A stretch of 64,000 nucleotides of DNA from an uncultured virus (IMG/VR IMGVR_UViG_3300030329_002891) (IMGVR_UViG_3300030329_002891), one strand, 5' to 3'; positions 3,380-54,400 are shown, counted from the first letter of the stretch. The notes: generated by a model not told the origin, from the sequence alone. Program-made: numbers and translations.

Positions 3380-3407
3380 ATTTTAATTAGGCCAAACGAC
3401 TATTAAT

Positions 3408-3641
3408 TTAGTATGCCTCATAGTCATTATTGTCATATTTATTTTTCCATTTATCCATTTCTTGAAAATAAAGGTCTCTAAATTTATCAACCTCATCTCT
3501 TAATGTTTTGTTTTCTCTTATTATAATAATTAAAGAAGTTAAAAATCCCAAAACAAACCCTATTATAAGTATAATTCCTATTATGCCTAAAGTAATAAAT
3601 TCTGTGCTATTCATACCAAACTTTATATACCTTAATACCAT
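3408..3641 (-). CDS. Small membrane protein
   Basis: One hydrophobic segment followed by a charged tail; coupled to the upstream gene. Confidence 0.55.
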   Translation of the reverse strand: MVLRYIKFGMNSTEFITLGIIGIILIIGFVLGFLTSLIIIIRENKTLRDEVDKFRDLYFQEMDKWKNKYDNNDYEAY

Positions 3642-3853: not shown

Positions 3854-4125
3854 ATTTCTAGTTTTTCCAATTCAAACTGTAAATGTGCTATTGCTTTTTT
3901 AATACAATTAACTGGCGACTTGTGCTTACGATTTGCGCGCAATAAATACGTTACTGCTGTACCAATGTTATAGGTTAATTCAAAATCTTCTACTACTTTA
4001 CGAGCTTCATATTTATGATATTTTCCTATGTAATAAGTAGGTATTCTATTATCTATAGTTTTATCTGTTACATATAAATCCATGTTTCTGTCTTTTTCAT
4101 AATAATATTTACTGTGTTTATCCAT
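3850..4125 (-). CDS. DUF3310 (SaV-like / T7 gp1.7-like) protein
   Basis: PTYY...EARKVVEDFELTYNIGTAVTYLLRANRKH...IKKAIAHLQFELE. Confidence 0.7.
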   Translation of the reverse strand: MDKHSKYYYEKDRNMDLYVTDKTIDNRIPTYYIGKYHKYEARKVVEDFELTYNIGTAVTYLLRANRKHKSPVNCIKKAIAHLQFELEKLEI

Positions 4126-4517
4126 TAATCTAATTTACTTTTAAAATGATCAATAATTTTATTCATCTGTCTTTTGTAGAATAAATCAAAATCTACATAT
4201 TCCATTTCACCTGTATCACCATTCATGGTTTTAGGTTGTGTCTTTTCCCATAGTTTATACAACACTCCTCTCATTCTTTGACTAGGAGTTTTTTCACTAA
4301 ACTCTGAATTTGCTGTAGCTTTTTCTACAGCGTCTATCTGATCTTGATTAATATGATTAGCTGATATTAATACATAACCAGGTCTTTTAATTAATCCGAA
4401 TAGATTAACCATTGTTTCGTGCGCTAATTCAGGAGTACCTACGTAAATACGTAGACTCCCGTCTGCTAAGGTACTAACTTTATCAATACCTCCTTCAAAT
4501 ACAACTGAATTTTTCAT
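4125..4517 (-). CDS. Conserved phage hypothetical protein
   Basis: 130-aa ORF with KTPSQRMRGVLYKLWE motif; coupled on both sides. Confidence 0.6.
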   Translation of the reverse strand: MKNSVVFEGGIDKVSTLADGSLRIYVGTPELAHETMVNLFGLIKRPGYVLISANHINQDQIDAVEKATANSEFSEKTPSQRMRGVLYKLWEKTQPKTMNGDTGEMEYVDFDLFYKRQMNKIIDHFKSKLD

Positions 4518-5323
4518 AATATATCTTCATTCATTATATGTATAGTTCTTTCTGAATTTTTATCCAAATAATCAAAACCTTCACTTGGCCAATAATCATT
4601 ATCCATACAATATTTGTAAATTTCTAATTCTCTATTATACATTTCTCTACCCCTGTCTAATAGGTCTTCACCAAGCTCTATTATATTGATGCTAAATGGT
4701 GGATTTTTTTCTATTGCTACAATATAAAACTCTTGAGCCCTTACGGCGTCCATATAGAATGCAGCCTGTTTATAGTACTTAAACTTCCTTACAGAGCTTG
4801 CAAATGCGTTATATGAGCTATCTTGTGTAGTTTTAAGGTCTACTATTATATTTTGATCTGGTCTATATACATCAAGCATACCCCTGCATTTAATATCGTA
4901 TTCTTCGTTATACCATGCAATAATATGTTCTTTTAATCCATTAGTCAATAAAGTTTTTGCATCGCTATCTTTCATAAGTTTTAAAGTTAGCATTTCTATT
5001 AGATCATAGTCTTTTCCAGACAATACAGTTTTAAACATATTGTTGTTAGCAAATTCAGCAGCATCTTGCTTTCCTTGTTTAGTTCTTTTATCAAATTTAG
5101 GAGCAATAGCATAATGCTTGTTAAATTCTTCTGGCTGTAAAACATTCATGTGTAATGCTGATCCAAATTTCATAGCTGATGTAGCTGGCTGTGGGTTATC
5201 CATCATATATCTACAATACTCAGGAGAGTTGTTAGATAGATAATTTAGTATACTATTTGATACATAATCTTTATCATTATAGTAATTAGAGTGCGTTAAA
5301 TTGTGATTTTCTATTAATGTCAT
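4514..5323 (-). CDS. PD-(D/E)XK exonuclease, RecE/ExoVIII C-terminal-like (DUF3799)
   Basis: AMKFGSALHMNVLQP, KCRGMLD, IIVDLKTT, YYKQAAFYMD, FYIVAIEKNPPF. Confidence 0.85.
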   Translation of the reverse strand: MTLIENHNLTHSNYYNDKDYVSNSILNYLSNNSPEYCRYMMDNPQPATSAMKFGSALHMNVLQPEEFNKHYAIAPKFDKRTKQGKQDAAEFANNNMFKTVLSGKDYDLIEMLTLKLMKDSDAKTLLTNGLKEHIIAWYNEEYDIKCRGMLDVYRPDQNIIVDLKTTQDSSYNAFASSVRKFKYYKQAAFYMDAVRAQEFYIVAIEKNPPFSINIIELGEDLLDRGREMYNRELEIYKYCMDNDYWPSEGFDYLDKNSERTIHIMNEDIL

Positions 5324-10777: not shown

Positions 10778-10816
10778 AATTTTATTATTTTATTTATTAT
10801 TATTATTAAGAATAGT

Positions 10817-10880
10817 AAAAGGGGCAGGATAACAGCAAAATTTAGTTATCATTCCGTGGCCACACGCTACTGCCCCTCTT
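10817..10880 (-). ncRNA. Structured intergenic element or terminator with an internal hairpin
   Basis: AGGGGCAG...CTGCCCCT closing stem, inner GATAAC/GTTATC hairpin, U-tract on the minus strand. Confidence 0.45.
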
Positions 10881-10884
10881 ATTG

Positions 10885-11754: not shown

Positions 11755-12181
11755 ATTCTTTTTCTCCTATTTTAGTTAATAATTCTTCTGGTGTTCCATG
11801 AAATACCATTTTAGACTCATTATATATTTCATAAACAGTTATAAATATTTGCCTATCTTTTCCTTCTGATATTTCATATATAAATTCTTCCCAACAATCT
11901 TTAGCATCAGGATGCATACAATATATTCCTCCACCTCCTGTTTTAAAATATGCAAACATTTGTGCTGCTAAACAATCCATGCCATTAAATATTGCTTTTT
12001 CTTTATCTATTCTCATTCCGTTTACCAAGGTATATCCTGCTAGCCATTGAGCTAATTCTACACCATGCCCACTCATATATCCATCATATTGACGGTACAT
12101 GGTAGTAATTGGTCGTGTATGTTTTCTACCTGATTCATCTTTCCAGGTTTGTATTACTTTAGTTAGTGATCTTGTTCCCAT
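11747..12181 (-). CDS. Conserved phage hypothetical protein
   Basis: MGTRS...YRQYDGY...HGVELAQWL...NGMDCLAAQ. Confidence 0.65.
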   Translation of the reverse strand: MGTRSLTKVIQTWKDESGRKHTRPITTMYRQYDGYMSGHGVELAQWLAGYTLVNGMRIDKEKAIFNGMDCLAAQMFAYFKTGGGGIYCMHPDAKDCWEEFIYEISEGKDRQIFITVYEIYNESKMVFHGTPEELLTKIGEKEYA

Positions 12182-12183
12182 AA

Positions 12184-12393
12184 TTATTTATTTATTTCTT
12201 TAATTTCCCAGTTTTCATGATCTATATCCATTTGCTCAAGTTCTTTTTCAGCTATTAAATCCCATAAACTCTCATCACCAGACAAGACTTTATCGTTAAT
12301 AGTTGCTTTATGATCTCTTCCATCATCTGGAAATTTTAATGTTACACGCGTAGTGTATTGCCTAATTACTATAAGCTCATATTCTTTATGCAT
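12184..12393 (-). CDS. Hypothetical protein
   Basis: 69-aa ORF in operon. Confidence 0.55.
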   Translation of the reverse strand: MHKEYELIVIRQYTTRVTLKFPDDGRDHKATINDKVLSGDESLWDLIAEKELEQMDIDHENWEIKEINK

Positions 12394-12490
12394 TGTCTTT
12401 TATTAATTTAGTTAATAATTTTACTAGTTTTTCTAAAGCTACAGCTACACGTTTTACATCGTTATGCAGCTCTTTTTCAGATTTGTTCAT
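12386..12490 (-). CDS. Small helical peptide (34 aa, not in ORF track)
   Basis: MNKSEKELHNDVKRVAVALEKLVKLLTKLIKDNA fills the gap and overlaps both neighbours. Confidence 0.45.
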   Translation of the reverse strand: MNKSEKELHNDVKRVAVALEKLVKLLTKLIKDNA

Positions 12491-12734
12491 AATAATAACT
12501 TTTTATTCTTTCTATTATACCTCTGCCATTCGCAGTATGAAACCCATAACTATGCGTATATAAAGAGGGTATTGGTTTATTTTCAATTAACAAATAAAAT
12601 AAATCCCATTCATCAGGATAATCCATATCCTGCTGTGTTTGATTTATAGCTTCTGCTAATGCATGTGGATCGTGCCTTAAAGCTTCTTTTCCATATGTTT
12701 TACATATGTATTTTTCTACTTGTAATGCTGTCAT
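12477..12734 (-). CDS. Hypothetical protein
   Basis: 85-aa ORF, ATGA-coupled. Confidence 0.55.
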   Translation of the reverse strand: MTALQVEKYICKTYGKEALRHDPHALAEAINQTQQDMDYPDEWDLFYLLIENKPIPSLYTHSYGFHTANGRGIIERIKSYYYEQI

Positions 12735-12994
12735 AATTCTAATTTAATTTGATTTTTACTAGGTTGCCATTGATAATAGTAAAGAGTATACGTTTTATCT
12801 CTACCAAACTTATCTGGAAAGGTTTGCTCTCCAAGTAATGGAGTATCTTTATCTATTATCATTTTCTTATCACTATATTTAACAAGTATTTTTTCGTTAG
12901 TAAACTTATAAGGCAAAGCTACAAGACTGTCTCCTTTGTATTTAGGATTAACCTTGTAGCCTGCTATAAGTTTCTTTAAGAGATATGATTTCAT
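12731..12994 (-). CDS. Hypothetical protein ending in QIKLEL
   Basis: 87-aa ORF, ATGA-coupled. Confidence 0.55.
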   Translation of the reverse strand: MKSYLLKKLIAGYKVNPKYKGDSLVALPYKFTNEKILVKYSDKKMIIDKDTPLLGEQTFPDKFGRDKTYTLYYYQWQPSKNQIKLEL

Positions 12995-13248
12995 TTAGTA
13001 TAGCTCTTAGCTTTGTATACTGTTGTATTCTTTTGACTGTCAACGTGTTGTATAGCTTTTAATCCTTGCCATATTTCTGTTTCTTTTTTAACAACATTAT
13101 AGCACTCTTCAATTAATTTTTCTCTTTGTATTTCTACTGGTTTAGTAGGATCTACTGTTATACTTTGACCATAATTAATCTTAATTGCTTCAAAGTTACC
13201 TATGTTAATAGTTTTACTAACATTAAATGATATTGTATTTGTTTCCAT
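12991..13248 (-). CDS. Conserved phage hypothetical protein
   Basis: SKTINIGNFEAIKI motif. Confidence 0.6.
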   Translation of the reverse strand: METNTISFNVSKTINIGNFEAIKINYGQSITVDPTKPVEIQREKLIEECYNVVKKETEIWQGLKAIQHVDSQKNTTVYKAKSYTK

Positions 13249-13250
13249 AA

Positions 13251-13499
13251 TTATTTATTTATAAATCGTTTAGTTCTATCGTATGCTTCTTGTGTTTTAG
13301 TTTTAATAAATTTAACATCAAGATAATGATTACATTTACCTAAAAACTCAGTGTTTAATTCACTTAATATTTTCTTAGTATTATTTATAGATTCTGGAAG
13401 TTTTTTCTTAAGTTTTGTATTTTGTATGTTATCGCTTACATATTCTTTCCATTCACTATATGATTTTGTAAGGCTTTTGCCTATTTTATTTACTTTCAT
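13251..13499 (-). CDS. Hypothetical protein
   Basis: 82-aa ORF in operon. Confidence 0.5.
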   Translation of the reverse strand: MKVNKIGKSLTKSYSEWKEYVSDNIQNTKLKKKLPESINNTKKILSELNTEFLGKCNHYLDVKFIKTKTQEAYDRTKRFINK

Positions 13500-14118
13500 T
13501 TATTTTAATTTTAGCAGGCCTAATTTGATTTGCATTCATACTTATTGTTTCTGTTTCTTCTTCACATATTAGACATTTTGCTTCTCCATGAAAACCTTCT
13601 TCATCAAATGATACTTCTGCTTCACAGCATTCTGATGCTTGATCTAAGTCCCAATGTAAATCGTCCCATATTACTTCATATTGTGCTGACAGTCTACCGC
13701 CAAAGCACATGCCTGGTTCCTCGTACTCTAATGTAAAGCATAAGTCAGGAAAGTCTTTCATAATATTATCTATCCAAGCTATAGGAGGACTCCAGGCTGT
13801 TTCAAATGATACTGCAAAATAATCTATATCATTATGATCTACATGGGCTTCACAAGCGTCCCATTTAGTTCCCCATTCTTCACAACGCCAATCATACCAA
13901 TCAGTATATCCATATTTGGCTTTGTTAAGTATAGCTTGTTCCTTTTCGTCTTGTGTTTGTGTGCCTTTAGTTATATTTAAATCTTCAGGCATAGGATATG
14001 TTCCATTAAATGTAAATTCATCATTTTTTTCAATATTTATTGTTGATTTTTCTACGAATTCTCGTAGTTGTATTTCGTCACCTGTTACTTCTAGGTGGTT
14101 CCAGCACCAATTTGGCAT
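13486..14118 (-). CDS. DUF1281 / YubB ferredoxin-like domain protein
   Basis: MPNWCWNHL...WYDWRCEEWGTKWDA...FETAWSPP...YEEPGMCFGG. Confidence 0.8.
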   Translation of the reverse strand: MPNWCWNHLEVTGDEIQLREFVEKSTINIEKNDEFTFNGTYPMPEDLNITKGTQTQDEKEQAILNKAKYGYTDWYDWRCEEWGTKWDACEAHVDHNDIDYFAVSFETAWSPPIAWIDNIMKDFPDLCFTLEYEEPGMCFGGRLSAQYEVIWDDLHWDLDQASECCEAEVSFDEEGFHGEAKCLICEEETETISMNANQIRPAKIKINESK

Positions 14119-14140
14119 AATTATTTGTTTTTAGGTTAAT

Positions 14141-14409
14141 AAAAAAGGAAGAAAGAGCTCTAGTTTACCGTACCGAGTTTCGGTGAGCCGAGTTTCGGTT
14201 ATTCGTTAAGATACTCTTTCAACCTATTTATAAAAGAAAGAGGAAGGCTAGTCCGTTTGTTAATTGTAAATTAATCTTTTATGTTAATATTCAATTTATT
14301 GTTGTTTGTCAATATTCTAGCCAACCTCTTTCTTATGAAAAAGGAAGGAGCCCAATCAGTGCGTTGCTTTATCTGACCTTAGTTAACACGCGTGGACTCC
14401 AACCTATTT
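14141..14409 (-). ncRNA. Tandem array of three structured RNA-like units with a conserved 2x2 internal loop
   Basis: Plus-strand arms AGG-AA-GAAAGAG / CTCTTTC-AA-CCT (14146-14225), AGG-AA-GGCTAG / CTAGCC-AA-CCT (14241-14327) and AGG-AA-GGAG / CTCC-AA-CCT (14342-14405). Confidence 0.55.
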
Positions 14410-14498
14410 GTATAGTAATCATCTACCAATGTATATTCACCTATGGCCTTTTTCAGCGAAGGGAATATACAAAATGTGGTTTGTGATTTACACCTATA

Positions 14499-14888
14499 CT
14501 ATATTTGTGATGCTAATAATTTAATCTGTTCAGGACTAAATGTATTAGATTCAGCTTTTCTTTTTCTTCTTTCTGCTCTATGTCTAGTGAAAGCATTTAT
14601 TATTTTAAAATATCTATTGATATGTGCTTTTCTATTTTTAGGATACAACTCATTAAGATTTTTAGTCATTTTCATTAATTCATTATATGTTGGGAACTTT
14701 TGTTCTGTTCCGTCAAGATATTTAATAACTAAGTCTATTTTATTGACTTTTTTAATAATTAGATGTGCATTGCTTTTTTCATACGATGCGTGTGCTATTT
14801 GGTATCTTGTAACGCCTTTTACTCCTTGTTTTAGGCATTTTTGTAAGTCTTTTAAATATTCTGATGATATTTTATAGTTTTCTTCCAT
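14499..14888 (-). CDS. Basic hypothetical early protein
   Basis: 129-aa ORF preceded by the TTTACTATTA motif. Confidence 0.6.
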   Translation of the reverse strand: MEENYKISSEYLKDLQKCLKQGVKGVTRYQIAHASYEKSNAHLIIKKVNKIDLVIKYLDGTEQKFPTYNELMKMTKNLNELYPKNRKAHINRYFKIINAFTRHRAERRKRKAESNTFSPEQIKLLASQI

Positions 14889-14924
14889 GGCAAAAAGTAT
14901 TTGGTTAATATTATTATTAATAGT

Positions 14925-15009
14925 AAAAGGAAGCGAAAGAGGAATTGTAATCGTTCACAAAGTATAACCGCTCAGTTATTAATTAAATTACTAACCCCCT
15001 TCACTTCCT
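14925..15009 (-). ncRNA. Long-stem structured element or terminator
   Basis: Minus strand AGGAAGTGAAGGGGG...CCTCTTTCGCTTCCT pairs fully only with G-U wobbles; followed by TTT and the TTTACTATTA motif. Confidence 0.5.
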
Positions 15010-15015
15010 ATTATT

Positions 15016-15279
15016 TTATTTATATTTTCTAGTTATTTCTTCTTCTATTTCTTCAGCTGTAGGTGTTGGCGTAAGTGCAGTAAATATTGAAAATATTACA
15101 CCTGCAACAACAGCAGTAGCTAGACCGCTAAATGTACCAATAAATAGTAGTGGCAGTAACAACGTGAAGAGAATATCCCAGAAAGTTTGTGTTTTAACCA
15201 GTCTACGCCTACCAATGGCCTTATATACTATGATATAATAGCCAATGGCAGCGAAGAATGCTATCCCTAGGATATTCAT
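15016..15279 (-). CDS. Small multi-pass membrane protein
   Basis: Two to three hydrophobic segments; tail PTAEEIEEEITRKYK. Confidence 0.65.
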   Translation of the reverse strand: MNILGIAFFAAIGYYIIVYKAIGRRRLVKTQTFWDILFTLLLPLLFIGTFSGLATAVVAGVIFSIFTALTPTPTAEEIEEEITRKYK

Positions 15280-15590
15280 TAGAACGGCATCTCTTTGGAT
15301 GCTTTATCTATAGCTTCTTTTGCATCTTTTTGAGGATTATACTCATTAAGTAGCATAGAATGAGAGAATTTTGCTTCAGCATTTGTATTTCTTCTTACTT
15401 CTAGGTTAACATAACCTTTCTCGTTTACGTGTTCTTGCATAAATTCACAGAATGCTTTAGCTTGAACAGCTACATTTAACAAGCTGTTACCGTCTTTAAA
15501 CGTAACTTCTCTGATAAATACACCGTTAGCAAATGTTTTTTGTGATTTTGTAGCTTTTGTTGTAGTTTTTGTTTTAGCTTTTGTAGCCAT
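15279..15590 (-). CDS. Hypothetical protein with an SSB-like C-terminal tip
   Basis: Beta-rich core, ends KEMPF. Confidence 0.6.
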   Translation of the reverse strand: MATKAKTKTTTKATKSQKTFANGVFIREVTFKDGNSLLNVAVQAKAFCEFMQEHVNEKGYVNLEVRRNTNAEAKFSHSMLLNEYNPQKDAKEAIDKASKEMPF

Positions 15591-15637
15591 AATTAAATAA
15601 TTTAAGTTAATACTAGTTTATTGTTATTATTAATAGT

Positions 15638-15670
15638 AAAAAAAGGAAGGAGCTGTGCTCTGCTCCCTCC
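15638..15670 (-). terminator. Rho-independent terminator
   Basis: Minus strand GGAGGGAGC-AGAGCACA-GCTCCTTCC-TTTTTTT. Confidence 0.65.
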
Positions 15671-15738
15671 ATGGTTATGAGTTTAGGTATCAAGTTTACG
15701 ACAAGTATTATTAATATAGCACAACCTACTCACAAGTA

Positions 15739-16275
15739 TTAAATACTTTTAAATGCATTTTTTCTGTTTTTATATTCAGAATCAACCTGAACCTCTAACT
15801 CCTTGTAATACTGCTCTATAACGCTTTGACACTCGTTTTTACAATATTCAAGAGTCTTGTATGTACGAGGTTTGCCCATCCAAGTTGTATCATCGTCTTG
15901 TGAAAGCGCGTAATCGCTTGAATGAGCGCAATCAAAACCTATCCAATCTAAATTTATATTAGGATTGGTGTTAAAACCTGTTGGATTTCCATGATATGTA
16001 ACGCCACCATGAACCGTAACCATATCAAGACGATATTGGTTATAATAAGGTGAATGTAATTTTTCAATAATTTCATGTCCATGCTCATCATATTGTCCTA
16101 TTGGCAAATCTATAGAACAAGGCAGTCCTATGTAGCCACAATAATGCCCATATCTTTTATGTCTTTGTATTACATACCAAACATTTTTATATTGATTGAC
16201 ATACCAATCAGGTTCTTTAGACACTTTGTCTTTAATATCTTGCTGTTCTGTTGAACTTATTTCAAGTAAAGCCAT
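15739..16275 (-). CDS. Conserved phage hypothetical protein
   Basis: GHYCGYIGLP...VHGGVTYHG...WIGFDCAH motif. Confidence 0.7.
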   Translation of the reverse strand: MALLEISSTEQQDIKDKVSKEPDWYVNQYKNVWYVIQRHKRYGHYCGYIGLPCSIDLPIGQYDEHGHEIIEKLHSPYYNQYRLDMVTVHGGVTYHGNPTGFNTNPNINLDWIGFDCAHSSDYALSQDDDTTWMGKPRTYKTLEYCKNECQSVIEQYYKELEVQVDSEYKNRKNAFKSI

Positions 16276-16298
16276 AATTATATATTTTAAGGGTTAAT

Positions 16299-16325
16299 AA
16301 AAAGAGTGACTAAATTGCCACTCTT
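16299..16325 (-). terminator. Rho-independent terminator overlapping a stop codon
   Basis: Minus strand AAGAGTGGC-AATTTA-GTCACTCTT-TTT. Confidence 0.55.
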
Positions 16326-16711
16326 ATGTTATCTACATCAAAGCAAGTAGCCCAAAATCTATTGTGTTCTAAATTTAGGCTATGTATCATATCATCATGC
16401 TCTTTTTGAGTTATTAGCTCTTCATCAAGCGCACATCCATATTGTGTTGCTAAATCACGTCTATACATGCTATCTAATTCTGCTTTGATATTGTTTTCAT
16501 GACATTCTAAATGCCATTCATCAAGCATATCTTTAAGTGCTTGGTCTTTAGCTTGTTGTATTATATCATTAAGAGGTGTAACCTCATGTGTATAATAGTC
16601 AACGTTTTGTATGTCGTGTGCAGTGCCACAAACAACGCAATCTGCTAATTTACTTGTTAGTTCTGTTGCTCTTGTAGAACCACAAGAACAATTAATAGGA
16701 TAAAGTTTCAT
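16310..16711 (-). CDS. Hypothetical protein with an N-terminal zinc-finger-like motif
   Basis: CSCG...CVVCG. Confidence 0.6.
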   Translation of the reverse strand: MKLYPINCSCGSTRATELTSKLADCVVCGTAHDIQNVDYYTHEVTPLNDIIQQAKDQALKDMLDEWHLECHENNIKAELDSMYRRDLATQYGCALDEELITQKEHDDMIHSLNLEHNRFWATCFDVDNIRVAI

Positions 16712-16780
16712 AATAAATATTTTAAAAGATTAATAACTAGTATTAATAGTAAATACGAGCGAGCGATCAGCGAGCGAGTT

Positions 16781-16805
16781 AAAAAAGAGAGACTTAACTC
16801 CCTTT
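16781..16805 (-). terminator. Rho-independent terminator
   Basis: Minus strand AAAGGGAG-TTAAGT-CTCTCTTT-TTT. Confidence 0.5.
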
Positions 16806-16994
16806 AATATGATTTTCATTGATATACTCAGATGCCTGTAAACAGCCGTTAATTGTTTCTAAGTCTTTATTAAATTTTTTATCACTCCAATGCGAGTGTT
16901 CTTTTAATTGTGTTGTAACTGATAAATATTTTATTAGGCGGCATAATGCTTTGTATTCTTCATCACTGAATACAGGTTTGGATAGTTTATCCAT
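16794..16994 (-). CDS. Hypothetical early protein
   Basis: 66-aa ORF preceded by TTTACAATTA. Confidence 0.6.
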   Translation of the reverse strand: MDKLSKPVFSDEEYKALCRLIKYLSVTTQLKEHSHWSDKKFNKDLETINGCLQASEYINENHIKGS

Positions 16995-17174
16995 AATTTT
17001 ATATGTTTTGATTTATACTTATTGTTAATTGTAAAAAAAAGAGAGGCATTGATGCACATCGCCTTTAGCATAAAGCATATTCGGCTTCGCATTGTCATTC
17101 TCTTTTATATTTTATAAAGAAAGAGCCACTAAGGTTGCCAAGCCTATATAAGCGCTTTAAGTGGTAATCTTTCT

Positions 17175-25490: not shown

Positions 25491-27026
25491 ATGGCAAATA
25501 TGTATACAGGCACTTATGGTGCTGGAACAACTGCCGAGAATGCTCTTAACACAGCGTTAATGCAATACCCAGAGATTGCTAGAACGCTTATTAAGCAGTA
25601 TCCTCGTTATGCGGCGACTTATCTTTTAGAAAGAACAGGTCGTTATGCAACAGAGAAAGTCCTAGGGGACAACTCTTTTGAATGGAAAGTGATGGGTAGA
25701 TATAATGCTCCATCATATTCTACTGGTTATGTTAAAGGTGTATCTGCTGATACTTCTTGGACTAATTCATTAACAACAACTACTGGAGCTGTTTGGGATG
25801 CTGCTGATGCAAATGGCGACCAATTTGAAGTTCTTATTGACGGAACGGCTACAGGAAGAACTCCTGACTTCTTAAATAAGTGGGATATGGTAAGATTCCA
25901 ATCTGGAGCTACTGCACTTGTAATTGAAGATCCTAGATCTAACGATTCAGGACAAGGTGCTTCTACTGATAGAATTGTAAAATTTGAAATGGTAGATGGT
26001 GCGTCAAATTCTGCTGTAGAAACTGATTTCGCTGATGAGGCTATTATAGCTTCTATTGGTTCTGCATTCCCTAACGGGTCTGACGGTGCTGATGTAGGTG
26101 AGAACTGGGTATATCCATCAACTCATACGAATTGGTTAACTACAATGCGTAAGAAATGTTCAGTAACTGGTAAAGACTTAACTGATGTAACTTGGATTGA
26201 AAATAACGGTTCAAAACTTTGGTACTTTACTAGAGAGCAACAAATGATGGATGAGTTTATGTACCAACAAGAGCTTCAAAGATGGTATGGTAGAAAGTCA
26301 GTAACAGACACTACAATACAAAGACCAGGAGCTTATACTTCATCTGCTATAGGTACTTCTGGTACTATGGCTTCTTCAGTTGTAACTGGAGATGGTTTAT
26401 TAGCTCAAATTGATTCTTCTAACCAAGCTTCTTATTCAATGGGATCTTTAACTGAAGATATTATCACTGAATTTATCGCTAAGATTTCATTAAACGCAAC
26501 TGCTGCTGAAGGTAACGAGTGGGTTGTATTTACTGGAACTGAAGGTAGATTAGCATTCCACAAAGCTATGAAAGATCTTATTGTTGCTCCTGCTGGTGCA
26601 ATGACAGGTGGTTCAATGAAAGGTGTAAGTGGAGACGTTCATCTTGGAGCAAACTTTGCTTCTTATAGTGCATTAGGTAACAAAATTACTGTTGCTTACT
26701 GCCCTGTATTTGATGATCCTAATTTACACTCTACTGCTAGTGGAACTAATTCATTTGGTGACAACAGATTGAAAGAATCTGCTAAGATGGTATTTATGGA
26801 CTTCGGAAAAACTTCTGGTGTTTCTAACGTTGAGTTAGTTACTAAAGGAGCTGAAGGAGTTAACAGAAGTATGATCAAGAAGTATGTAGCTGGAATGGTG
26901 AATCCTTATGACCAAAAAGCAATGTTAGCTGCTAACGCTGATGACAAATTTGAATGCCACGTGCTTTCAGAAACTGGAATCATTGTTAGAAACCCATTGT
27001 CTTGTGGTATCTTAAGCGCATCGTAA
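25491..27026 (+). CDS. Major capsid protein
   Basis: 511 aa; FEWKVMG, GDGLLAQI, VFTGTEG, CPVFDD, GIIVRNP as in crAss-like capsid proteins; strong codon bias; UUCG hairpin downstream. Confidence 0.85.
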   Translation: MANMYTGTYGAGTTAENALNTALMQYPEIARTLIKQYPRYAATYLLERTGRYATEKVLGDNSFEWKVMGRYNAPSYSTGYVKGVSADTSWTNSLTTTTGAVWDAADANGDQFEVLIDGTATGRTPDFLNKWDMVRFQSGATALVIEDPRSNDSGQGASTDRIVKFEMVDGASNSAVETDFADEAIIASIGSAFPNGSDGADVGENWVYPSTHTNWLTTMRKKCSVTGKDLTDVTWIENNGSKLWYFTREQQMMDEFMYQQELQRWYGRKSVTDTTIQRPGAYTSSAIGTSGTMASSVVTGDGLLAQIDSSNQASYSMGSLTEDIITEFIAKISLNATAAEGNEWVVFTGTEGRLAFHKAMKDLIVAPAGAMTGGSMKGVSGDVHLGANFASYSALGNKITVAYCPVFDDPNLHSTASGTNSFGDNRLKESAKMVFMDFGKTSGVSNVELVTKGAEGVNRSMIKKYVAGMVNPYDQKAMLAANADDKFECHVLSETGIIVRNPLSCGILSAS

Positions 27027-46448: not shown

Positions 46449-48482
46449 TGGGAATAGACTACGGATTTTTTGAAGCCTTGACTGGACCTATGAAAACAGC
46501 AGGCGCAATACAAGATAACAGGGATCAACAAAAAATGCAACAGCTTCAATTATTACAACAACAACGTAATATGGAGTTGCAGCAATTAGACAAGCAAAAA
46601 CAACAACAACAGCAATTAAACGTAGCTACTAATGCTGCAATGCAAGATTTGTTTACTAAAAATAATTTTTCTAGACAAAAAGACATTGATGATTTTAGAT
46701 CATGGCATGCAACGTCTTCTGGTTGGGAAGAGATAAAAAATGTTATAGCACAAGCTGGCTCTGTAGATAATGCCAGATTAAATTATAACCTAGATTATTT
46801 AATGCAAGAATATTATGCTAATTTAAAAGACAATCCTGTATCAAGAAGAGCTAATAAAAATAAAGCTGCTTTAGAACTGTATCACTCTTTTGATTTAGAT
46901 AAAGCTAAAAACAGCAAACTAATAACTAGTGGAGCAAGAAAAAGATACGCTGATTTTGTTGGGGGTAAAACAGATAATTTTATATTTAATGGAGCTAGAA
47001 ATGATTATTTAGGTGAAATTACTAAAGGTCGTAGTATGGCTGACAATATAAATATAGATGATGTTATTGCAAGTAACTATAGTTCTATTATAGTTGACAT
47101 GGTTAATGATCAAAACCCTGCTGATCCACAAGCTTATATGCAAAGTTTAGACGATCAAGATATAAGAGATTGGGTAACAAAAGAATTAAATTATATGGAG
47201 TCTGGAGNNNNNNNNNNTAAGTTACTTTGGAGATAAAGCCGTATATGGAGAAAAAGAAATAGATACTGAATTTTCAACTGAATTAGTTAGATCTATTGAT
47301 GCTACTAATAAAACTCAAGTATATACAGGAGATGATTGGTTTAAATTTAAAGATAATGGAATTTCATTTAATAATGTATTTGACGAAAGTGTAGGTATTG
47401 AATGGGATAGATTAGGAGGTTATGATAAAAGTTCTGAAATGAAAAGTTATAAAGGTCTAAAAGCTCCATTTGCTAAGAATAGACAAGTAGTCGGTTCTGG
47501 TAGAATATTTGCATATAATAAAGGTTTAGAAGATCAGATAACACAGGCTTGGGCTGGTAATTATAACGATGAAGGTAAAACTCCTAAATACAATTCTAAA
47601 AATCGTCAAGTGTATGACGTAGACATGTTAGGTCTTTATGATTCTTATGGTCATAAAATACAAGATCAAGATATAGGTTCATATTGGATTACAGGAAAAG
47701 ATATGTGGCAAGAATCAGAAAATGATGATTTAAGATTAACTGGTTATCATATAGCATTAGAAGGCAAAAATGCCGATGGAGATTCTTTTTTACTTACAGA
47801 TGTAACTAATAAAAAAGATCTAGCTAAAATGAGAGAGCAATATGCCAATACTAAATTTGATTATGTTATTGTAGCAGAGCTTATAGATGATGATGCATGG
47901 ACTCATGATGATGCTTATTATAAAAAGGTTGATTTAGGAGACGCAACTATACAATCTTTTATAAATCAAAATATACCTAGCGAAAATTTAAATAATGTTA
48001 AAAAGCAAATGATAAATTACGAACAAGAGGTTAATTTAAATAAATTATCTGAAAAACGTAAAATATCTAATTCTTTAAAGTTGCAAAAACAAATGAATCT
48101 TCCTGATAATGCTGCTTTAGATCAAGTAATTAATGCTTACGATCAAAGCTTAACAGTAGGACTTGGTACGGCAGGTGTAAATTCTTCTAAAATTCAACAA
48201 GCATTACCTATGATAATTTCAGATTTATTTGTACTTTCACGTCAAGAAAGAGCTTATCCTCATAGTTTTGGTGATGGAACTGTAGCTAATAATTCTTCTG
48301 AGTATATGGCTTATTCAGCAAGAAGATTAAAATCAGGATTAATTAACGATCCTAATTTTGCAGAAATGTTAAATTCTATACAGGAGGGTAATTATAATGT
48401 ATATAGTCAATCAACTATGAATAATACAATGTATAAGCAAAGCAAAAGAATAAGCAAACTTATCTCTAAATATCAAAGATAA
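46448..48482 (+). CDS. Cargo protein; probably one gene split by the 10-N assembly gap
   Basis: N run at 47208-47217; the frame of the 47439 ORF is open from the gap onward (SYFGDKAVYGEKEIDTEF...). Confidence 0.65.
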
Positions 48483-51400
48483 TGGCAGATAATGAATATA
48501 CTTCAGGCCTAAATATACTTTTAGGTAATAGAGCAAATACTGGACAGGTTCAGCCACAGTCTCCAGAAAAAGATATACAAGATCAATATGATAGCGGAAT
48601 GTCTGGATTAGAAAGTTTAATTCAGGGCGCGCCTGCGGGAGCAGTAGAAAACACTACATTAGATAGATATGCGTTAGGTCAAGCTGCTAGCGGTATGGCT
48701 GCAGATGAATATAGTAAATTAGATGAGTTATCATATGGAAGCGCACCACAACAACAAATAGTTGATCCAGCTGAAATGATTAGCTCCCCTGGACAAAGAG
48801 TAGAAAGGGGATTAAAAGCAGGTTGGGGTGATTTGGTAAAAGGTACGGGAGATATGGTAAACTTTATGAATGCTTGGGTAAAACCTGGAGATCCAGATCC
48901 GTCAACACCTATCGGTGAATATCTTAAAAAAGTAGGGACAGAATTTCAAAATGAAAACGCATTAATATTATCAGAAGATCTACAAGACATTACATTTAGA
49001 GACATGCTGAGGGGAGAGTTTTGGAACTCTAAAATTTCTAGATTAGTTCCTTACGCTATGTCTTTTATAGTTCCTTATGGTGTGGGGGCCAGCATAGGTA
49101 GAGGGGCGGCAGGAATGTTAGGAAAATGGGGGGCAAAAACATTAAAGTCAGTATCTAAAGCAGATAAATCTAGAACATTTATGGGGATGCCTGTAGGTAC
49201 TATGGGTAAGGGCGTAGGAATGGGAAGTAGCGGAAGACAAGGTTCTGGTCTTTTAGGTTTTATTGCTAAAGATTTAGGAAAAAAAGGAATAGCGCCAACT
49301 AAAAAATTAAGAGATTTAGGAGGTTTTGTTGGGGGTGGTTTTGGAGCAAATATGGCAGAAGGAGCTTATTTATCTGGAGAAGCATATACAGAAATGCTTA
49401 ATGAAACAGATGAAAACGGAAATAAATTATTTACCCCAGACGAAGCGGCTTCTCATGCAGCAGGCGTTATGGGAGATAATTTAAAATGGGTTGCTGTAGA
49501 TGCATTACAATATGGTGTTTTGTTTGGGGGTTTAGGAAAAAACATGGCAAGAAGATTAGTTTCAAGCCCTGCACAAAAAGAACCTTTTAAACTAAGCGTA
49601 AAAGGATTAACAGATTTTGCAGTAAGAAAAGCACTTCCATTAATGCCTGCTGGAGCTGCATATGCAAGCGTAGAGGGAATAACAGAAGGTATACAAGAAA
49701 CATATCAAGAGTGGATAAAATACACCGCTATACAAGAAGCTAAAGGAGAGGATTACGAAACGTTAACTGATTGGGTAAAAGATGGTGATGGCGTAAGACC
49801 AGAAATAAGAGATTTATTTTGGTCTGCTGTAGGATTAGGAGCGGCAATGGGTGGTTCTAGAGGTTTTTACGATGCTAATGCAGAAAGGCAAAAAATGTTA
49901 GATGAAAAAATAGATTTGCTAAATAATAATGCAAAAATGCTAGATGACGCAAAAACTTTAGATGAGCAATATGAAGCGGAAGAGCGTATGTTTGATAACG
50001 TTATAGGCTTTAACGTTTGGAATTATGATGGAGACGGATCTATTTCTGTTGAATATATAAACAATTTAGTTAAAGACGGAAAAAGATCACAAGAATGGGC
50101 TGATGGAAAAATTAAAGACGTAGAGCAGTTAGAGAAAAATTTTGAAAAACATTCTATAAATAGTATATTAACAGAATCTGGAGCTAAAGCAGCATTTTTT
50201 AAAGAAACTAGAAAAACAAAAAAGTTAAAAGAAATAGAAATAGAAAAAGCTATTTACGAAAAAGATAAATCTATTATAAATGAAACTTATGAAAATTCAA
50301 AAGAAAGAGAAGAAAAACTAGCAGTATTAAAAGAAAATCATTCTATTGTTATAAAGGAAAAGCAAGAAGAATTAGACATCCTTAAAACAGAACTACAGGA
50401 CATATATACTTTAAGAATGGATAAAGCTCCTATTGCTAAAAAAACAGGCAAGCGAGACGCTAGGTTTAAAAAGCAAGGATTGACTAAAGAGCAGATGCAA
50501 GAGTATTCTCAAGAGGCAGTAGCAGAAAAAGAAAGATTAGAAAAGGGTGATTTTACTAAAGAAGAAAGAGAACAGAAATTATATGAACTAGCTGAAACTG
50601 ATAAATCATTTAAAGATTGGAAGGCTGATTTAGAAAAAGAACAAGGAGAGGGGTTTTTAGATCAATTTGATAATAAGTACGTAATGGATAAATTAAATCC
50701 TTCTATTGCTAAAAAGACAGTTGATACAGTTAAAGAATTAGGAACTAAAGCGTTTGAAACAGCTAAAGATTTAGGAGGTAAAGCTGCAGAAGGAGTTAAA
50801 GGATTGTTTACCAAAACAAAAGAAGTAGTAACATCTGAAGAAACAAAAAAAGAAGTAAAAAGTAATTTAGATAAAGCTAAAAATTGGGTAGAAAAGAATT
50901 TAGAATCTTCAAAAGAAGCAATTTCAGAAGTAATAGAAAAAGCTAAAAAAGAAGGTAAGACGGCTAAGGATGTTATTAAAGAGCTTAGAGTGGGGAAAAA
51001 ATTAAAAGGAGCTACAAAGCAAGTTTATGATGCTATTGAGAAATTTGCTGCCGCTAGAATAGCAGACAAAGAAGGCAAGACATGGCCTGAATTTATTAAA
51101 GGAATGTTTACTACACCTCAAGAAGGTGTAAAAAAAAAAGACCAAAAAAGAATAGTTCCTAAAACTAAAGACTATCAAAAACAAGAAGAATCTTTACAAG
51201 AAGGTCCGCGTCAGATAAAAAAAGCTGATATATCAAAAGGACCAGGAAACACCTATATTATTAAAACTCCAGAAGGAGATATTAGATACAAAGACTTTGA
51301 AGGGGCTTCAGATAAATATGTATTAGGAGAGGACACTGATATTGAATTGCGTCTTAAAAAACCAATCAAAGGTCAAGAAAATGTTGTTGAGGTTGATGGT

Positions 51401-54400
51401 AAATTATATTTTCAATTTAAAAAAGATGCATCTTTATACGAAAGCGAAATAGAAGTTGTTGCTAAAGGAGAAGTAATAGGTAAAGTAGCGCAACAAGACT
51501 ATAAAGCTAAAGGCCCTACTAAAAGAGCTAAGAAAGCAGATAAACGTGCTATAGATAAAATAATAGCAGGAGTTAAAGACACTAAAGAAAATATTAAAAA
51601 ACTACTTAGCAAGTCATTTAAAGACCATCCACAATTAGAAATAACACAAGTAAATAGTAATCATAATCTTTATTATGAAAGCGGATCTTATGCAAGCGCT
51701 AAAGTAGAAGAAATAATACAAAAGAAATTTCCTGGCAAAAGAGGTTATGTAATAAATAAACGACTAACAGATGATTACGGCAACGAAGTTACAGCATATG
51801 CTATAGGATCTGTTGTATTAATTAATGAGGATAGCGTTAATCAATCTGATATAATACACGAAACAGGACACATTTACTATTCGGTAATGAAGAATACTCC
51901 TTTAATGAAAAGGATTAGAAAGCTTCTTTATAAAACTAAATTGTATGAAGATACCAAAATGGAATATCCTGAATTAATATTATTTAATTATAAAGGAGAT
52001 AAAGTTACACTGGGTAATATATATGAAAATATACTTACAGAGATAAATAGAGATGAAAATATAGCAGGTGATTTAAAAGATATTGTTATAGAGATGAGTG
52101 ATGTGCAAGGTGTAAATGATGCGAGATTTAACGAACTGTTTAATGAATTAAGAATACAATTAAAGTCTAAAGGATATAAAGAAAGTAGGGTAGACTTACA
52201 AGAACATTTAATAGAAGAAACATTTACTAGAACTTTAGAGGCTTATTCTTATGGTACAGCAGATGCCGTATTAAAAGGATCTAAAGCTCAACAGCAATTA
52301 AGAAAAGACTTAATAGAGTTTTATAAAGAAAGTAAAAAACTAGCTACAGAAGAAGAAGCTAGAGATCTACTAACACTATCTGTAGATAATGTACCTACTC
52401 TAAGTTTAGAAGCAGCTATAAAGCACGTATTGCTTGATTTCTCTTCAGCAGATAGAACATCTCCTAAAGTAGAAAACTCTGGTTATGCTGGAGGTAAAAG
52501 AGCTAAGAAAAGCAGAAAACAAAAAGTAACTAGTCGTAGCGCTATATATGCTTATATAAGTAATTATACAGGGCGTAACCTTACAGATCAGCAAATTACT
52601 GATAGAGTTTTAAAAGATATAGAGAAGGATGGTAAATTAATATTAGAAGATTCAAAAATAGTAGAAGGATATATTAAGGCTGTAGTTACACAAAAAAGAA
52701 GAATGCAAGAGTTTAATAATATAGGAGAATTATTCAAAACTCAAGAAGATGAAGTAGACGATAATCAAACTGTAGATTATGATGAAGAAACTAAAAATTT
52801 AGGTGTATCTAAAAGCTTGTCTCAATTCTTTAGAAATATTATAAAATTACATAATGCTAAGAATCCTGACGCTTTAATGGATAAAAGAGATTTAATGTAT
52901 AATCTTATGGCGTTAGCAAAAGAATCAATGAATGATCCTTATACATTTTATGATAGAGTAAGAAATCATGATAATACTAATATTCAATCTATGTTAAGAG
53001 AATTGGATAGTCAGTTTAAAAATGATAAGGCTTTAACTAATGCTTTGTTATTACAAGTACAATCTCCTTTAGAAGGAATTAATATAGAAACATTATCACA
53101 TGGTGCTTTACAGTTTTTTAAAGATAAATATGGTAATGTTAAAAAACGATGGAAAAAGCATAGAACTATAAATAAAAGCGTAGAGGGATCTGCAATAAAC
53201 ACTATTATGAAAGATGTTAAAGATAATGGTAATAAAGTTGCACAAGATATAGCCGATGTTTATAATGAATTATTTAGCAAACGTAATCCTGATAGTTTAA
53301 AAGATAGATATGCTGCTGCTCAAAAAATATTAGATATTATATTAGACGATAGTGGTAAAGGTAAATATGTCTATAAACAGGCCCTATTACAAAATAGAAT
53401 TAACTTTAAAGGAGAACGAGATTTTTTACATAATATTTTATTTAACTATACAAAAAAGTTTGGAACTACTATATTAGATAATCCGTCCTTTATGCCTTTT
53501 GATAAAACAAAGCAAAAATTTATACCAGCAGTTAAAACTCAATTTGGAAATATTTTAGAACCTTATGCATGGATAGGAGACAAGCAAGGAGAATTAAGAG
53601 CTATTTTAACAGAAGGACTTATTTATTCTAGACCTTATAATTACTTATCTATGGTGGATAATGTACAGCAAGATGGTGTAAGTATATTTAATAAAGAAAA
53701 TAGTTTACACAACAGAATGAAGAATATTGCTGAGGTAGTTCAGAATGAAATAACTATTAGCGAGAATGATATTATGCATCCTGATAATAATATCTATACG
53801 TCCATGCTTTATAAACTAAAAGCAGATGGAGAATTAGCGAATAGAAAAGGAGAAGTTTTTACTAATCCATTTAATCTAACAATAAACTCTGGGCTAATGA
53901 GAAGATTTATAGGAGAAGTAAAAGATCCTGCGTCTTTAGAAATGGCTAACACTTTAAATGATTTAACTCCTACAGAATTATTAGCATATGATTTCTTTTC
54001 ATTTTTATCAAAATATAATGAAGGCATTAAGAATAAAAAAGAAACAATTACATATGACCAGCCTATTGCTGTATTTTCAGATAAAAGCAGAAGGTATTAT
54101 ATAGAAAGTATTATAGCTCATAACGATAAGAATAGAAAATTGTTATTATCTAAAATAAAAAATAATCCACGTTATAATGCTACTTATAAAAACGGAAAAG
54201 ATAAAGTATTCCCTTTTACTATTACTAATAATAAAATAGAAGGTATAGATGGGGCGGTTGTAAAGTTTAAAAAATATATAAAAGATAATAAAGAGTTATT
54301 TCAAAATAACGAAGACTTTAATGAAACTAAAAATGTTGATGCTGCACTAGAAGCTTACTATACATCTTATATTGCAAATAGATTCATGGCTCAACAATTA

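Follow-up and report, generated by a model that had tools for sequence, protein, structure and literature searches.

Candidate RNA modules closed by terminator-like helices form variable arrays in the putative early region of marine crAss-like phages

The non-coding RNAs of phages are barely charted. Among published cases, the closest parallel to the elements described here is a pair of early intergenic RNAs of phi14:2, a cultured crAss-like phage of Cellulophaga, which are reported to lie above most genes in level and to be abundant throughout, with their function left open (bioRxiv 10.1101/2020.03.07.982082). Like the units of our locus, these RNAs are reported to be non-coding, to lie on the gene strand and to come from the early region of a marine crAss-like phage (bioRxiv 10.1101/2020.03.07.982082). 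The gap between g004 and g005 of phi14:2 (3392–3483), which is reported to be very highly transcribed (bioRxiv 10.1101/2020.03.07.982082), contains three GGUU...UUCC mini-hairpins, two of them followed by a U-run. The three read GGUUGAAAUUCC, GGUUGGAUUCC with U5 and GGUUUCAAUUUCC with U4, and a loose form of the pattern gives four forward matches in the 100-kb genome, three of which are those at 3392–3483. Comparison of phi14:2 with our locus gave no blastn match, and no stem-closed GGTT/TTCC unit was found in its first 12 kb. The second of the long early gaps without genes in the same genome, at ~4050–4560, appears tmRNA-like by eye, having a start typical of such genes and a 3' end that resembles a tRNA.

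Intrinsic terminators resemble the units in having a G+C-containing helix that leads to a U-run, an A-rich tract upstream and a position between co-directional genes. In contrast to such terminators, the loop here is a conserved structured domain of 40–130 nt rather than 3–8 nt, the units stand three to four in tandem 26 nt from the next start, and one of them, unit S, has no U-run. The RNase III sites of phage T7 are simple hairpins of ~60 nt between early genes, with about two turns of double-stranded RNA and an internal loop, and are not known to hold a conserved cargo. The units share with these sites the internal-loop hairpins between co-transcribed early genes and the occurrence as related, non-identical copies, but differ from them in that the collar (AGG-UU facing UU-CCU) is optional and the interiors are the conserved part. 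In the promoter-early stem-loop (PeSL) cassette junctions of T4-type phages, short conserved junctions flank swappable early cassettes in a hyperplastic region, as a start-signal motif and the collar and linker do here; unlike with PeSL junctions, no promoter was found ahead of the units, and what is exchanged as a cassette would be an RNA, not a small ORF. Another general bacterial class, the small RNAs that come from the 3' ends of mRNAs, shares the terminator of the mRNA; as would hold for the units, its members have no promoter of their own, are co-transcribed with the upstream gene and end in a terminator. The units differ from this class in that the two ends of a module pair with each other around the cargo and in that a search of the window found no seed-target pairing. 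To our knowledge, Bacteroidota lack Hfq.

The window, the whole stretch of 64,000 nucleotides from an uncultured virus (IMGVR_UViG_3300030329_002891) that was analysed, has a G+C content of 32% and belongs to a crAss-like phage, as indicated by a Crassvirus major capsid protein at 25491–27026 (Pfam, E 4e-34); a muzzle protein (Pfam, E 2.3e-142) and both tail ring proteins were also found. The capsid protein is only ~26% identical to those of catalogued crAss phages. Related IMG/VR genomes measure 65.7 kb (97% complete) and 68.4 kb (100%), and the DNA runs that match the window are labelled marine or estuarine. The structural genes lie on the plus strand from 18 kb onward. The minus-strand gene arm runs from ~17.9 kb down to 3.4 kb, with many small genes first and then DUF932, a DnaB-like helicase, Rad52 and a PDDEXK protein, a gene layout from which this arm is taken to be the early region. 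An ORF of 3869 aa (48482–60091, plus strand) has no Pfam match at E <= 0.001 and, from its position in a crAss-like genome, may be a virion RNA polymerase.

Table 1. Features of the minus-strand arm, with positions counted from the first letter of the window
Feature	Position	Strand	Description
Unit S	14410-14499	-	GUAUAG/CUAUAC stem; begins within the 129-aa gene's stop codon
Unit A	14342-14405	-	AGG-UU-GGAGUCCA...UGGGCUCC-UU-CCU, then UUUUC
Unit B	14234-14334	-	Outer helix AAGAAAGAGG/CCUCUUUCUU
Unit B inner helix	14327-14241	-	GGCUAG/CUAGCC; AU-rich interior; the 87 nt of the preliminary description
Unit C	14146-14225	-	Closing helix GAAAGAGU/GCUCUUUC, then UUUUUU
Unit C interior		-	Invariant internal loops UUAACGAAU and UACGGUAAACUA; variable apical hairpin
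Unit D	14928-15009	-	15-pair closing helix AGGAAGUGAAGGGGG/CCUCUUUCGCUUCCU, no UU loop
Unit G	10816-10881	-	Invariant core GCGUGUGGCCACGGAAUGAUAACUAA...GCUGUUAU, plain closing helix
129-aa gene	14499-14888	-	No known family; module array follows the stop in nearly every related locus
Downstream gene, 210 aa	13486-14118	-	DUF1281_C / Api92-like ferredoxin-like domain, E 6.9e-12
AU-rich start signal	14119-14145	-	UUAUUAACCUAAAAACAAAUAAUU before ATG; ~21-nt motif AACUAAAAACAAAUAAUUAUG
Ordinary hairpin terminator	15645-15670	-	GGAGGGAGC-loop-GCUCCUUCC + U7; equivalent intergenic position

The preliminary description of this locus had proposed three units of 64, 87 and 80 nt on the minus strand, separated by 14 and 15 nt, each of the form AGG-UU-stem...stem'-UU-CCU, with stems that differ in sequence yet remain complementary and with interiors unrelated to one another. 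Our analysis confirms these units, designated A, B and C, in length, spacing and form, and each is followed by a U-rich run. The closing stems do differ and do pair, both when read along the strand and in the folds, and the interiors are unrelated as judged by eye. When the window was scanned for AGGTT followed by a stem of at least four complementary bases and, farther on, the complementary stem with TTCCT, exactly three matches were found on the minus strand in 64 kb, all within 260 nt, together with one weaker, unrelated match on the plus strand (47926–48104). The gene-free stretch, initially put at about 270 bp, is really 380 nt (14119–14498) and also contains a fourth stem-closed unit, S, which the preliminary description did not include; beyond A, B and C the early arm thus contains three further stem-closed modules, S, D and G (Table 1). 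The closing stem of unit A consists of eight pairs, one of which is U-G, unit S is without a U-run and has an apical hairpin inserted in this lineage, and unit G starts 4 nt past the DUF932 gene. Single-sequence folding of both strands, compared with 200 shuffles, recovered the proposed closing helices of A, B and C. The minus-strand folds reach −20.3 kcal/mol for unit A (z −2.07, five of 200 shuffles as good), −21.3 kcal/mol for unit B (z −5.59, 0 of 200) and −26.8 kcal/mol for unit C (z −4.15, 0 of 200), and the plus-strand folds are weaker in all three cases (z −0.90, −3.83 and −3.32, respectively). Unit S folds at −24.6 kcal/mol (z −3.26).

The units had originally not been recognised as a known RNA family, and the same result was obtained when Rfam 15 was searched with a 3-kb segment, with 891 nt (E up to 10) and with 16 related loci; the best scores in the array came from snoRNA models, at 13.8–16.4 bits versus gathering thresholds of 37–50. 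ARAGORN detected no tRNA or tmRNA in the window or in 42 related loci. That the locus is not a CRISPR array, as also stated originally, is borne out by units that share only AGGUU and UUCCU and differ in stems and interiors. A solitary-repeat RNA anti-CRISPR was rejected, there being no near-identical direct repeats among the units. Type III antitoxin RNAs of the ToxI kind consist of tandem identical repeats of ~36 nt beside an endoribonuclease toxin gene; this identity was likewise rejected, the units here being unalike and 64–101 nt long, with a protein of no family and a DUF1281_C protein as neighbors. A resemblance of units A and G to SRP RNA and to a 16S rRNA segment was dropped, as the shared words are short and the Rfam models gave no score. 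Micro-ORFs in units B and G, where start-like codons are present, were dismissed because by eye their frames are not conserved among relatives. A blastn search of 50,697 phage records with 3 kb gave no match, exact patterns of the G core and the D core gave 0 matches each in 185,579 bacterial and archaeal species genomes (one per species), and the module core strings were not found in print in the literature searched. Within the window, sites antisense to the conserved loops (12 nt, at most one mismatch) comprised just the locus itself and AT-rich chance matches. None of the sequencing runs listed as containing window 13400–15000 was an RNA run, and three metatranscriptome runs from a sample containing the phage DNA yielded 0 contigs on 12000–17000, a result that is uninformative either way.

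Related loci were collected from IMG/VR via the downstream 210-aa DUF1281_C gene (35 loci) and from metagenomes via alignment of the upstream 129-aa protein (55 loci). One or two units of the same build lie upstream of the DUF1281_C gene in 17 of the 35 loci, and nearly all loci with the 129-aa gene have an array of one to three or more stem-closed units after its stop codon. A strict detector that demanded seven or more contiguous pairs, three or more of them G-C, a span of 40–175 nt and a U-rich tail was applied to the 400 nt downstream of this stop. It was positive in 36 of 39 distinct loci, with units visible by eye in the three negative ones, and in 0 of 39 when the coding sequence upstream of the same stops was used as a control. 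The detector was also positive on the reverse complement in 15 of the 39 loci and scored many coding sites across the whole window, making it too noisy on its own for mapping units, so the weight is placed on the difference between downstream and coding sequence and not on the detector itself. The units begin 1–14 nt past the stop codon in 19 of 36 loci. The carriers are related marine crAss-like phages with genomes of 65–68 kb. Unit D represents the most widespread module type, unit S is conserved in eight other loci, and nine other loci share the interior of unit B, which in them forms the inner part of a D+B composite. A 16-nt G core has 40 distinct matches in IMG/VR, of which 14 are distinct true G units. 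Other large stem-closed types (~110–150 nt) are present in the arrays of L192, L200, L015, L180, L173/L210 and L011/L186/L193; two examples of such units are GAGAGGUAGG...CCUACCUCUUUU and AAGAACAGG...CCUGUUCUUUUUU, and none matches Rfam.

Conservation and covariation in related phages, which the preliminary description had named as a check, were found for the B, C, D, and G types. The closing arms (P1) of the C, G and D types were picked by a script that required complementarity, and since pairing rates therefore arise partly by construction, only the variety of arms beside one core counts as evidence. Among 11 distinct G-type sequences, 31 of the 58 alignment columns are invariant, 99.5% of cells are paired (in part by construction), seven of 19 pairs have changed on both sides, and the covariation score was reached by 0 of 500 shuffles. 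The small G-type hairpin changes from CGUG/CACG to CGAG/CUCG in one phage, and a possible pseudoknot, involving A/U-GC with GC-U/G pairing, co-varies in two of the 11 sequences. An 8-nt palindrome in the G core, GUGGCCAC (window 10857–10864, minus strand), is replaced by GAGGCCUC, still a palindrome, in L207 and by GUGGCCAU in L022, changes compatible with a 4-bp hairpin capped by a tetraloop or, alternatively, with base pairing of one RNA copy to another. For the D type, 13 distinct sequences show 99.6% of cells paired (again partly by construction) and 8 of 18 pairs changed on both sides, with a covariation score reached by none of 500 shuffles; in the inner helix P2, which lies outside the script selection, three of five pairs have changed on both sides. 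The helices of the nine distinct C-type sequences were taken from per-sequence folds, as MAFFT/RNAalifold misaligned the variable hairpin that the invariant UUAACGAAU and UACGGUAAACUA flank. Their closing helices are of two unrelated kinds, GAAAGAGY/GCUCUUUC and GGGGUGGC/GCCACYYC. The apical helix takes three forms, CCGA/UCGG, CCGUG/CACGG and GGAUAU/AUAUCC, and is almost absent from one member. The inner closing helix of the B type has compensatory changes in three of six pairs. The A type is represented by only two variants, with identical interiors and either GGAGUCCA/UGGGCUCC or, in L293, GGGCCCA/UGGGCCC as closing, so that its internal fold is tentative (z only −2.07). At helix positions flanked by Watson-Crick pairs G-U and A-C, counted by the same rule, occur in a ratio of 12:1, the units invariably point in the direction of the genes, and U-runs are found on the gene strand, which together argue for RNA rather than DNA. 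The 12 G-U against one A-C, along with the better folding of the minus strand, support the selection at the RNA level on the transcribed strand that had been suspected from a single wobble pair. By these comparisons, the modules are confirmed as conserved, with predicted, co-varying RNA folds on the gene strand.

Unit A is found in four different neighborhoods, and the order of the arrays varies among close relatives, being S-A-B-C in the window, G-A-C in L183 and G-A-(D+B) in L182. A D+B composite is present in L171 and L172, the closest relatives, and its D domain is missing from the unit B of the window. Judged against these relatives, this unit B is a remnant of the composite, with two U's in place of the D domain, and its collar is the scar of the missing domain. 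The closing helix beginning GGAGUCCA wraps a different interior in L186, one interior can be found with different closings, as in the L293 variant of unit A, and in L187 a stop codon is followed by the apical hairpin of unit C without the rest of the unit. Comparison of these arrays shows the phages to gain, lose and swap the predicted modules as cassettes.

A reading that we favor tentatively, and that may well be correct, is that the units are terminator-closed, self-contained RNA modules whose conserved interiors bind something. Each module would be co-transcribed with the early genes or with its upstream gene, as suggested by the short distance from the stop codon described above and by the lack of a conserved promoter upstream of the units, where position counts are flat from −60 to −12; for the latter reason the units are not considered independent genes. 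A scan for sigma-70-type promoters reported 63 sites versus a shuffle mean of 87.9, i.e. fewer than in shuffles, and what we take to be the Bacteroidota −7 motif did not fit upstream of the units when compared by eye. The closing helix, with its purine-rich 5' arm and pyrimidine-rich 3' arm, would abut the U-run and clamp the conserved interior, serving as an intrinsic terminator that leaks, or as a hairpin that forms the 3' end, and shielding the RNA from exonucleases. A role in forming 3' ends is suggested by the junction of this helix with the U-run and by the ordinary terminators in equivalent gaps. Such termination would probably be leaky, since three to four units follow one another only 26 nt ahead of the next start and as many terminators in a row would starve the downstream genes unless they leak. 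In that case modules would build up, either at the 3' ends of early transcripts or as free RNAs of ~60–110 nt. The interior would be the working part, providing a binding surface for a protein or small ligand that differs for each type (A, B, C, D, G, S and others), and modules would be swapped at the shared collar and linker. That the interiors are tightly held and exchanged as cassettes suggests that each has a function of its own. Termination, accumulation as a discrete RNA and a binding or decoy function are what we infer from the sequence comparisons, and the size of the interiors, which at 40–130 nt are far from the 3–8-nt loops of textbook terminators, speaks against the terminator part of this reading.

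An alternative that we regard as unlikely is that the units are purely cis-acting terminators or insulators that time the early genes, with the large interiors as functionless passengers. The helices with G+C end 0–2 nt before the U-run in A, B, C, D and G, so that closing helices do run into U-runs as this alternative would have it. Simple hairpin terminators also occupy equivalent gaps, and the one at 15670–15645 pairs GGAGG with CUUCC and shares the CUUCC-U-run 3' end with the units. Units closed by a collar lie between co-directional genes in other phage contigs as well: they were found, with unrelated interiors, in two near-complete crAss-like genomes of 84.5 and 119.8 kb and in two near-complete phage genomes of 33–35 kb without a match to the crAss capsid, and the three examined (L067, L090 and L121) are each placed between co-directional genes. 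The collar unit of L132, with only five pairs, could be due to chance. A consensus terminator scan did not report the A, B, C, D, G and S units, the interiors of which have helices of their own, and the absence of any U-run from unit S is also at odds with a purely cis-acting terminator. A passenger should drift, yet L003 matches unit A at 64/64 positions beside flanking genes that agree at only 68% and 76% in DNA; this identity and the invariant columns of the G type indicate a constraint on the interiors that exceeds the demands of a terminator. Replacement of the closing helices likewise leaves the C-type loops and the G-type core invariant, and internal helices co-vary, as in P2 of the D type. 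If the units are only elaborate terminators, they would still represent an unusual design of transcription boundaries in Bacteroidota phages.

The UU/UU internal loop had been put forward in the preliminary description as a conserved structural signal at which a precursor might be cut, a role that does not extend to the units at large. Among 49 distinct units detected without reference to the collar, both GGUU and UUCC are present in only 22, one of the two in four and neither in 23. Interiors of the G, D and C types are also found with plain purine/pyrimidine helices running into the U-run; AGGAAG is fully paired to CUUCCU in unit D, the closing helix of unit G is plain, and in distant relatives the same G core is closed by ~12 bp only. 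Since the collar is optional and plain closings occur, the constant part is the pyrimidine-rich 3' arm leading into the U-run and not the U-U mismatches. These counts bear on a somewhat less probable explanation, close to that of the preliminary description, in which the units would be RNase III-type sites. A host enzyme would cut an irregular rod of ~18–21 bp, made up of the pairing of the A-rich leader with the U-run, GG/CC, the UU/UU loop and the inner helix, which would segment the early RNA, release the interiors and leave protective hairpins. Collar units can form such a rod, as the linkers between units have a fixed form, U4–6 followed by A-rich AUAAA(U)A, that is able to pair with the unit's own U-run; the collar contains a symmetric 2x2 internal loop, and the placement between early genes recalls the T7 early sites. 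The rod, however, is not conserved, given the 23 of 49 units without a collar and the ~12 bp that suffice around the G core of distant relatives, and a processing site needs no conserved interior of more than ten kinds.

That the units are attenuators sensing a ligand or factor, with the interior as an aptamer that decides whether the closing helix forms in time and so gates read-through, is quite improbable. The conserved asymmetric internal loops of the C type, the possible pseudoknot of the G type and the closing helix directly abutting the U-run would all suit such a device, but no module type is tied to a particular downstream gene, several different modules stand in series before one gene, no similarity to Rfam riboswitches was found, and no competing anti-terminator structure was seen. 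Elements acting at the DNA level, such as folded single-strand promoters, attC-type recombination sites or replication signals, are the least probable and hardly credible, for although the units lie at cassette junctions beside inserted small genes flanked by the start signal and have imperfect inverted-repeat ends with GTT near the 5' end, the excess of G-U over A-C and better gene-strand folding point to RNA, the units are always oriented with the genes, and the 5' collar GTT faces TTC rather than AAC, the paired RYYYAAC/GTTRRRY core sites at the two ends of an integron attC site being absent, which led us to reject that identity.

A more specific proposal, which we consider doubtful, is that the array is an RNA island for anti-defense or host takeover, in which the module types would be aptamer-like decoys that capture different host factors. 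The targets could be a nuclease, an RNA-binding protein, the 3' tail of the ribosome or an immune signaling nucleotide; the common terminator clamp would stabilize the modules, which would pass between phages much as accessory protein genes do. The proposal is compatible with interiors that are constrained, phage-only and turning over between close relatives, and with the position of the modules among early genes of the type found in plasmid leading regions (DUF932, DUF1281). The units define six or more new candidate families of RNA (A, B, C, D, G and S), of which B, C, D and G are backed by covariation. Their carriers are an abundant group of marine crAss-like phages known from uncultured material, and the modules invariably lie within a single accessory hot spot of the early arm. 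If these are stable RNAs with specific partners, the phages would carry swappable RNA "genes" beside accessory protein genes, and the modules would offer an entry point to the unexplained abundant early RNAs of phi14:2.

The 129-aa protein encoded upstream of the array matches no Pfam or PHROG family, and its homologues come only from marine or unnamed sources and have no Pfam domain. Its AF2 model (pLDDT 80) gave no match in the PDB with Foldseek at E <= 0.001, and the best Z of 5.5 in a wide VIA-align search is within the chance range for helical matches. The protein was thus dropped as an RNA-binding partner of the modules, as it has neither a family nor a convincing fold match. Contigs of DNA run X9 join across 14931/15302, 15053/15758 and 12511/12735, skipping 370, 704 and 223 nt, respectively, and one joint begins within unit D; the shorter side of these joints is only 21–22 letters, and related strains or other organisms are possible sources. 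On the other side of the array, the ~21-nt start-signal motif occurs once in the window and precedes many small genes in relatives (L001, L013, L017 and others), and its TAA doubles as the stop codon of the preceding gene. Relatives have extra small genes between the RNA array and the DUF1281 gene, each flanked by this motif in a manner resembling cassette junctions. Another motif, UUUUACUAUU(A/C)(A/U)UAAUAAUAA..., is found after unit D (14889–14927), unit G (10781–10815) and the simple terminator (15591–15644), all on the minus strand; it may act as a signal for a start or a promoter that accompanies terminators. Similar text is present after units in L016, L174, L189, L201, L212, L217 and L221.
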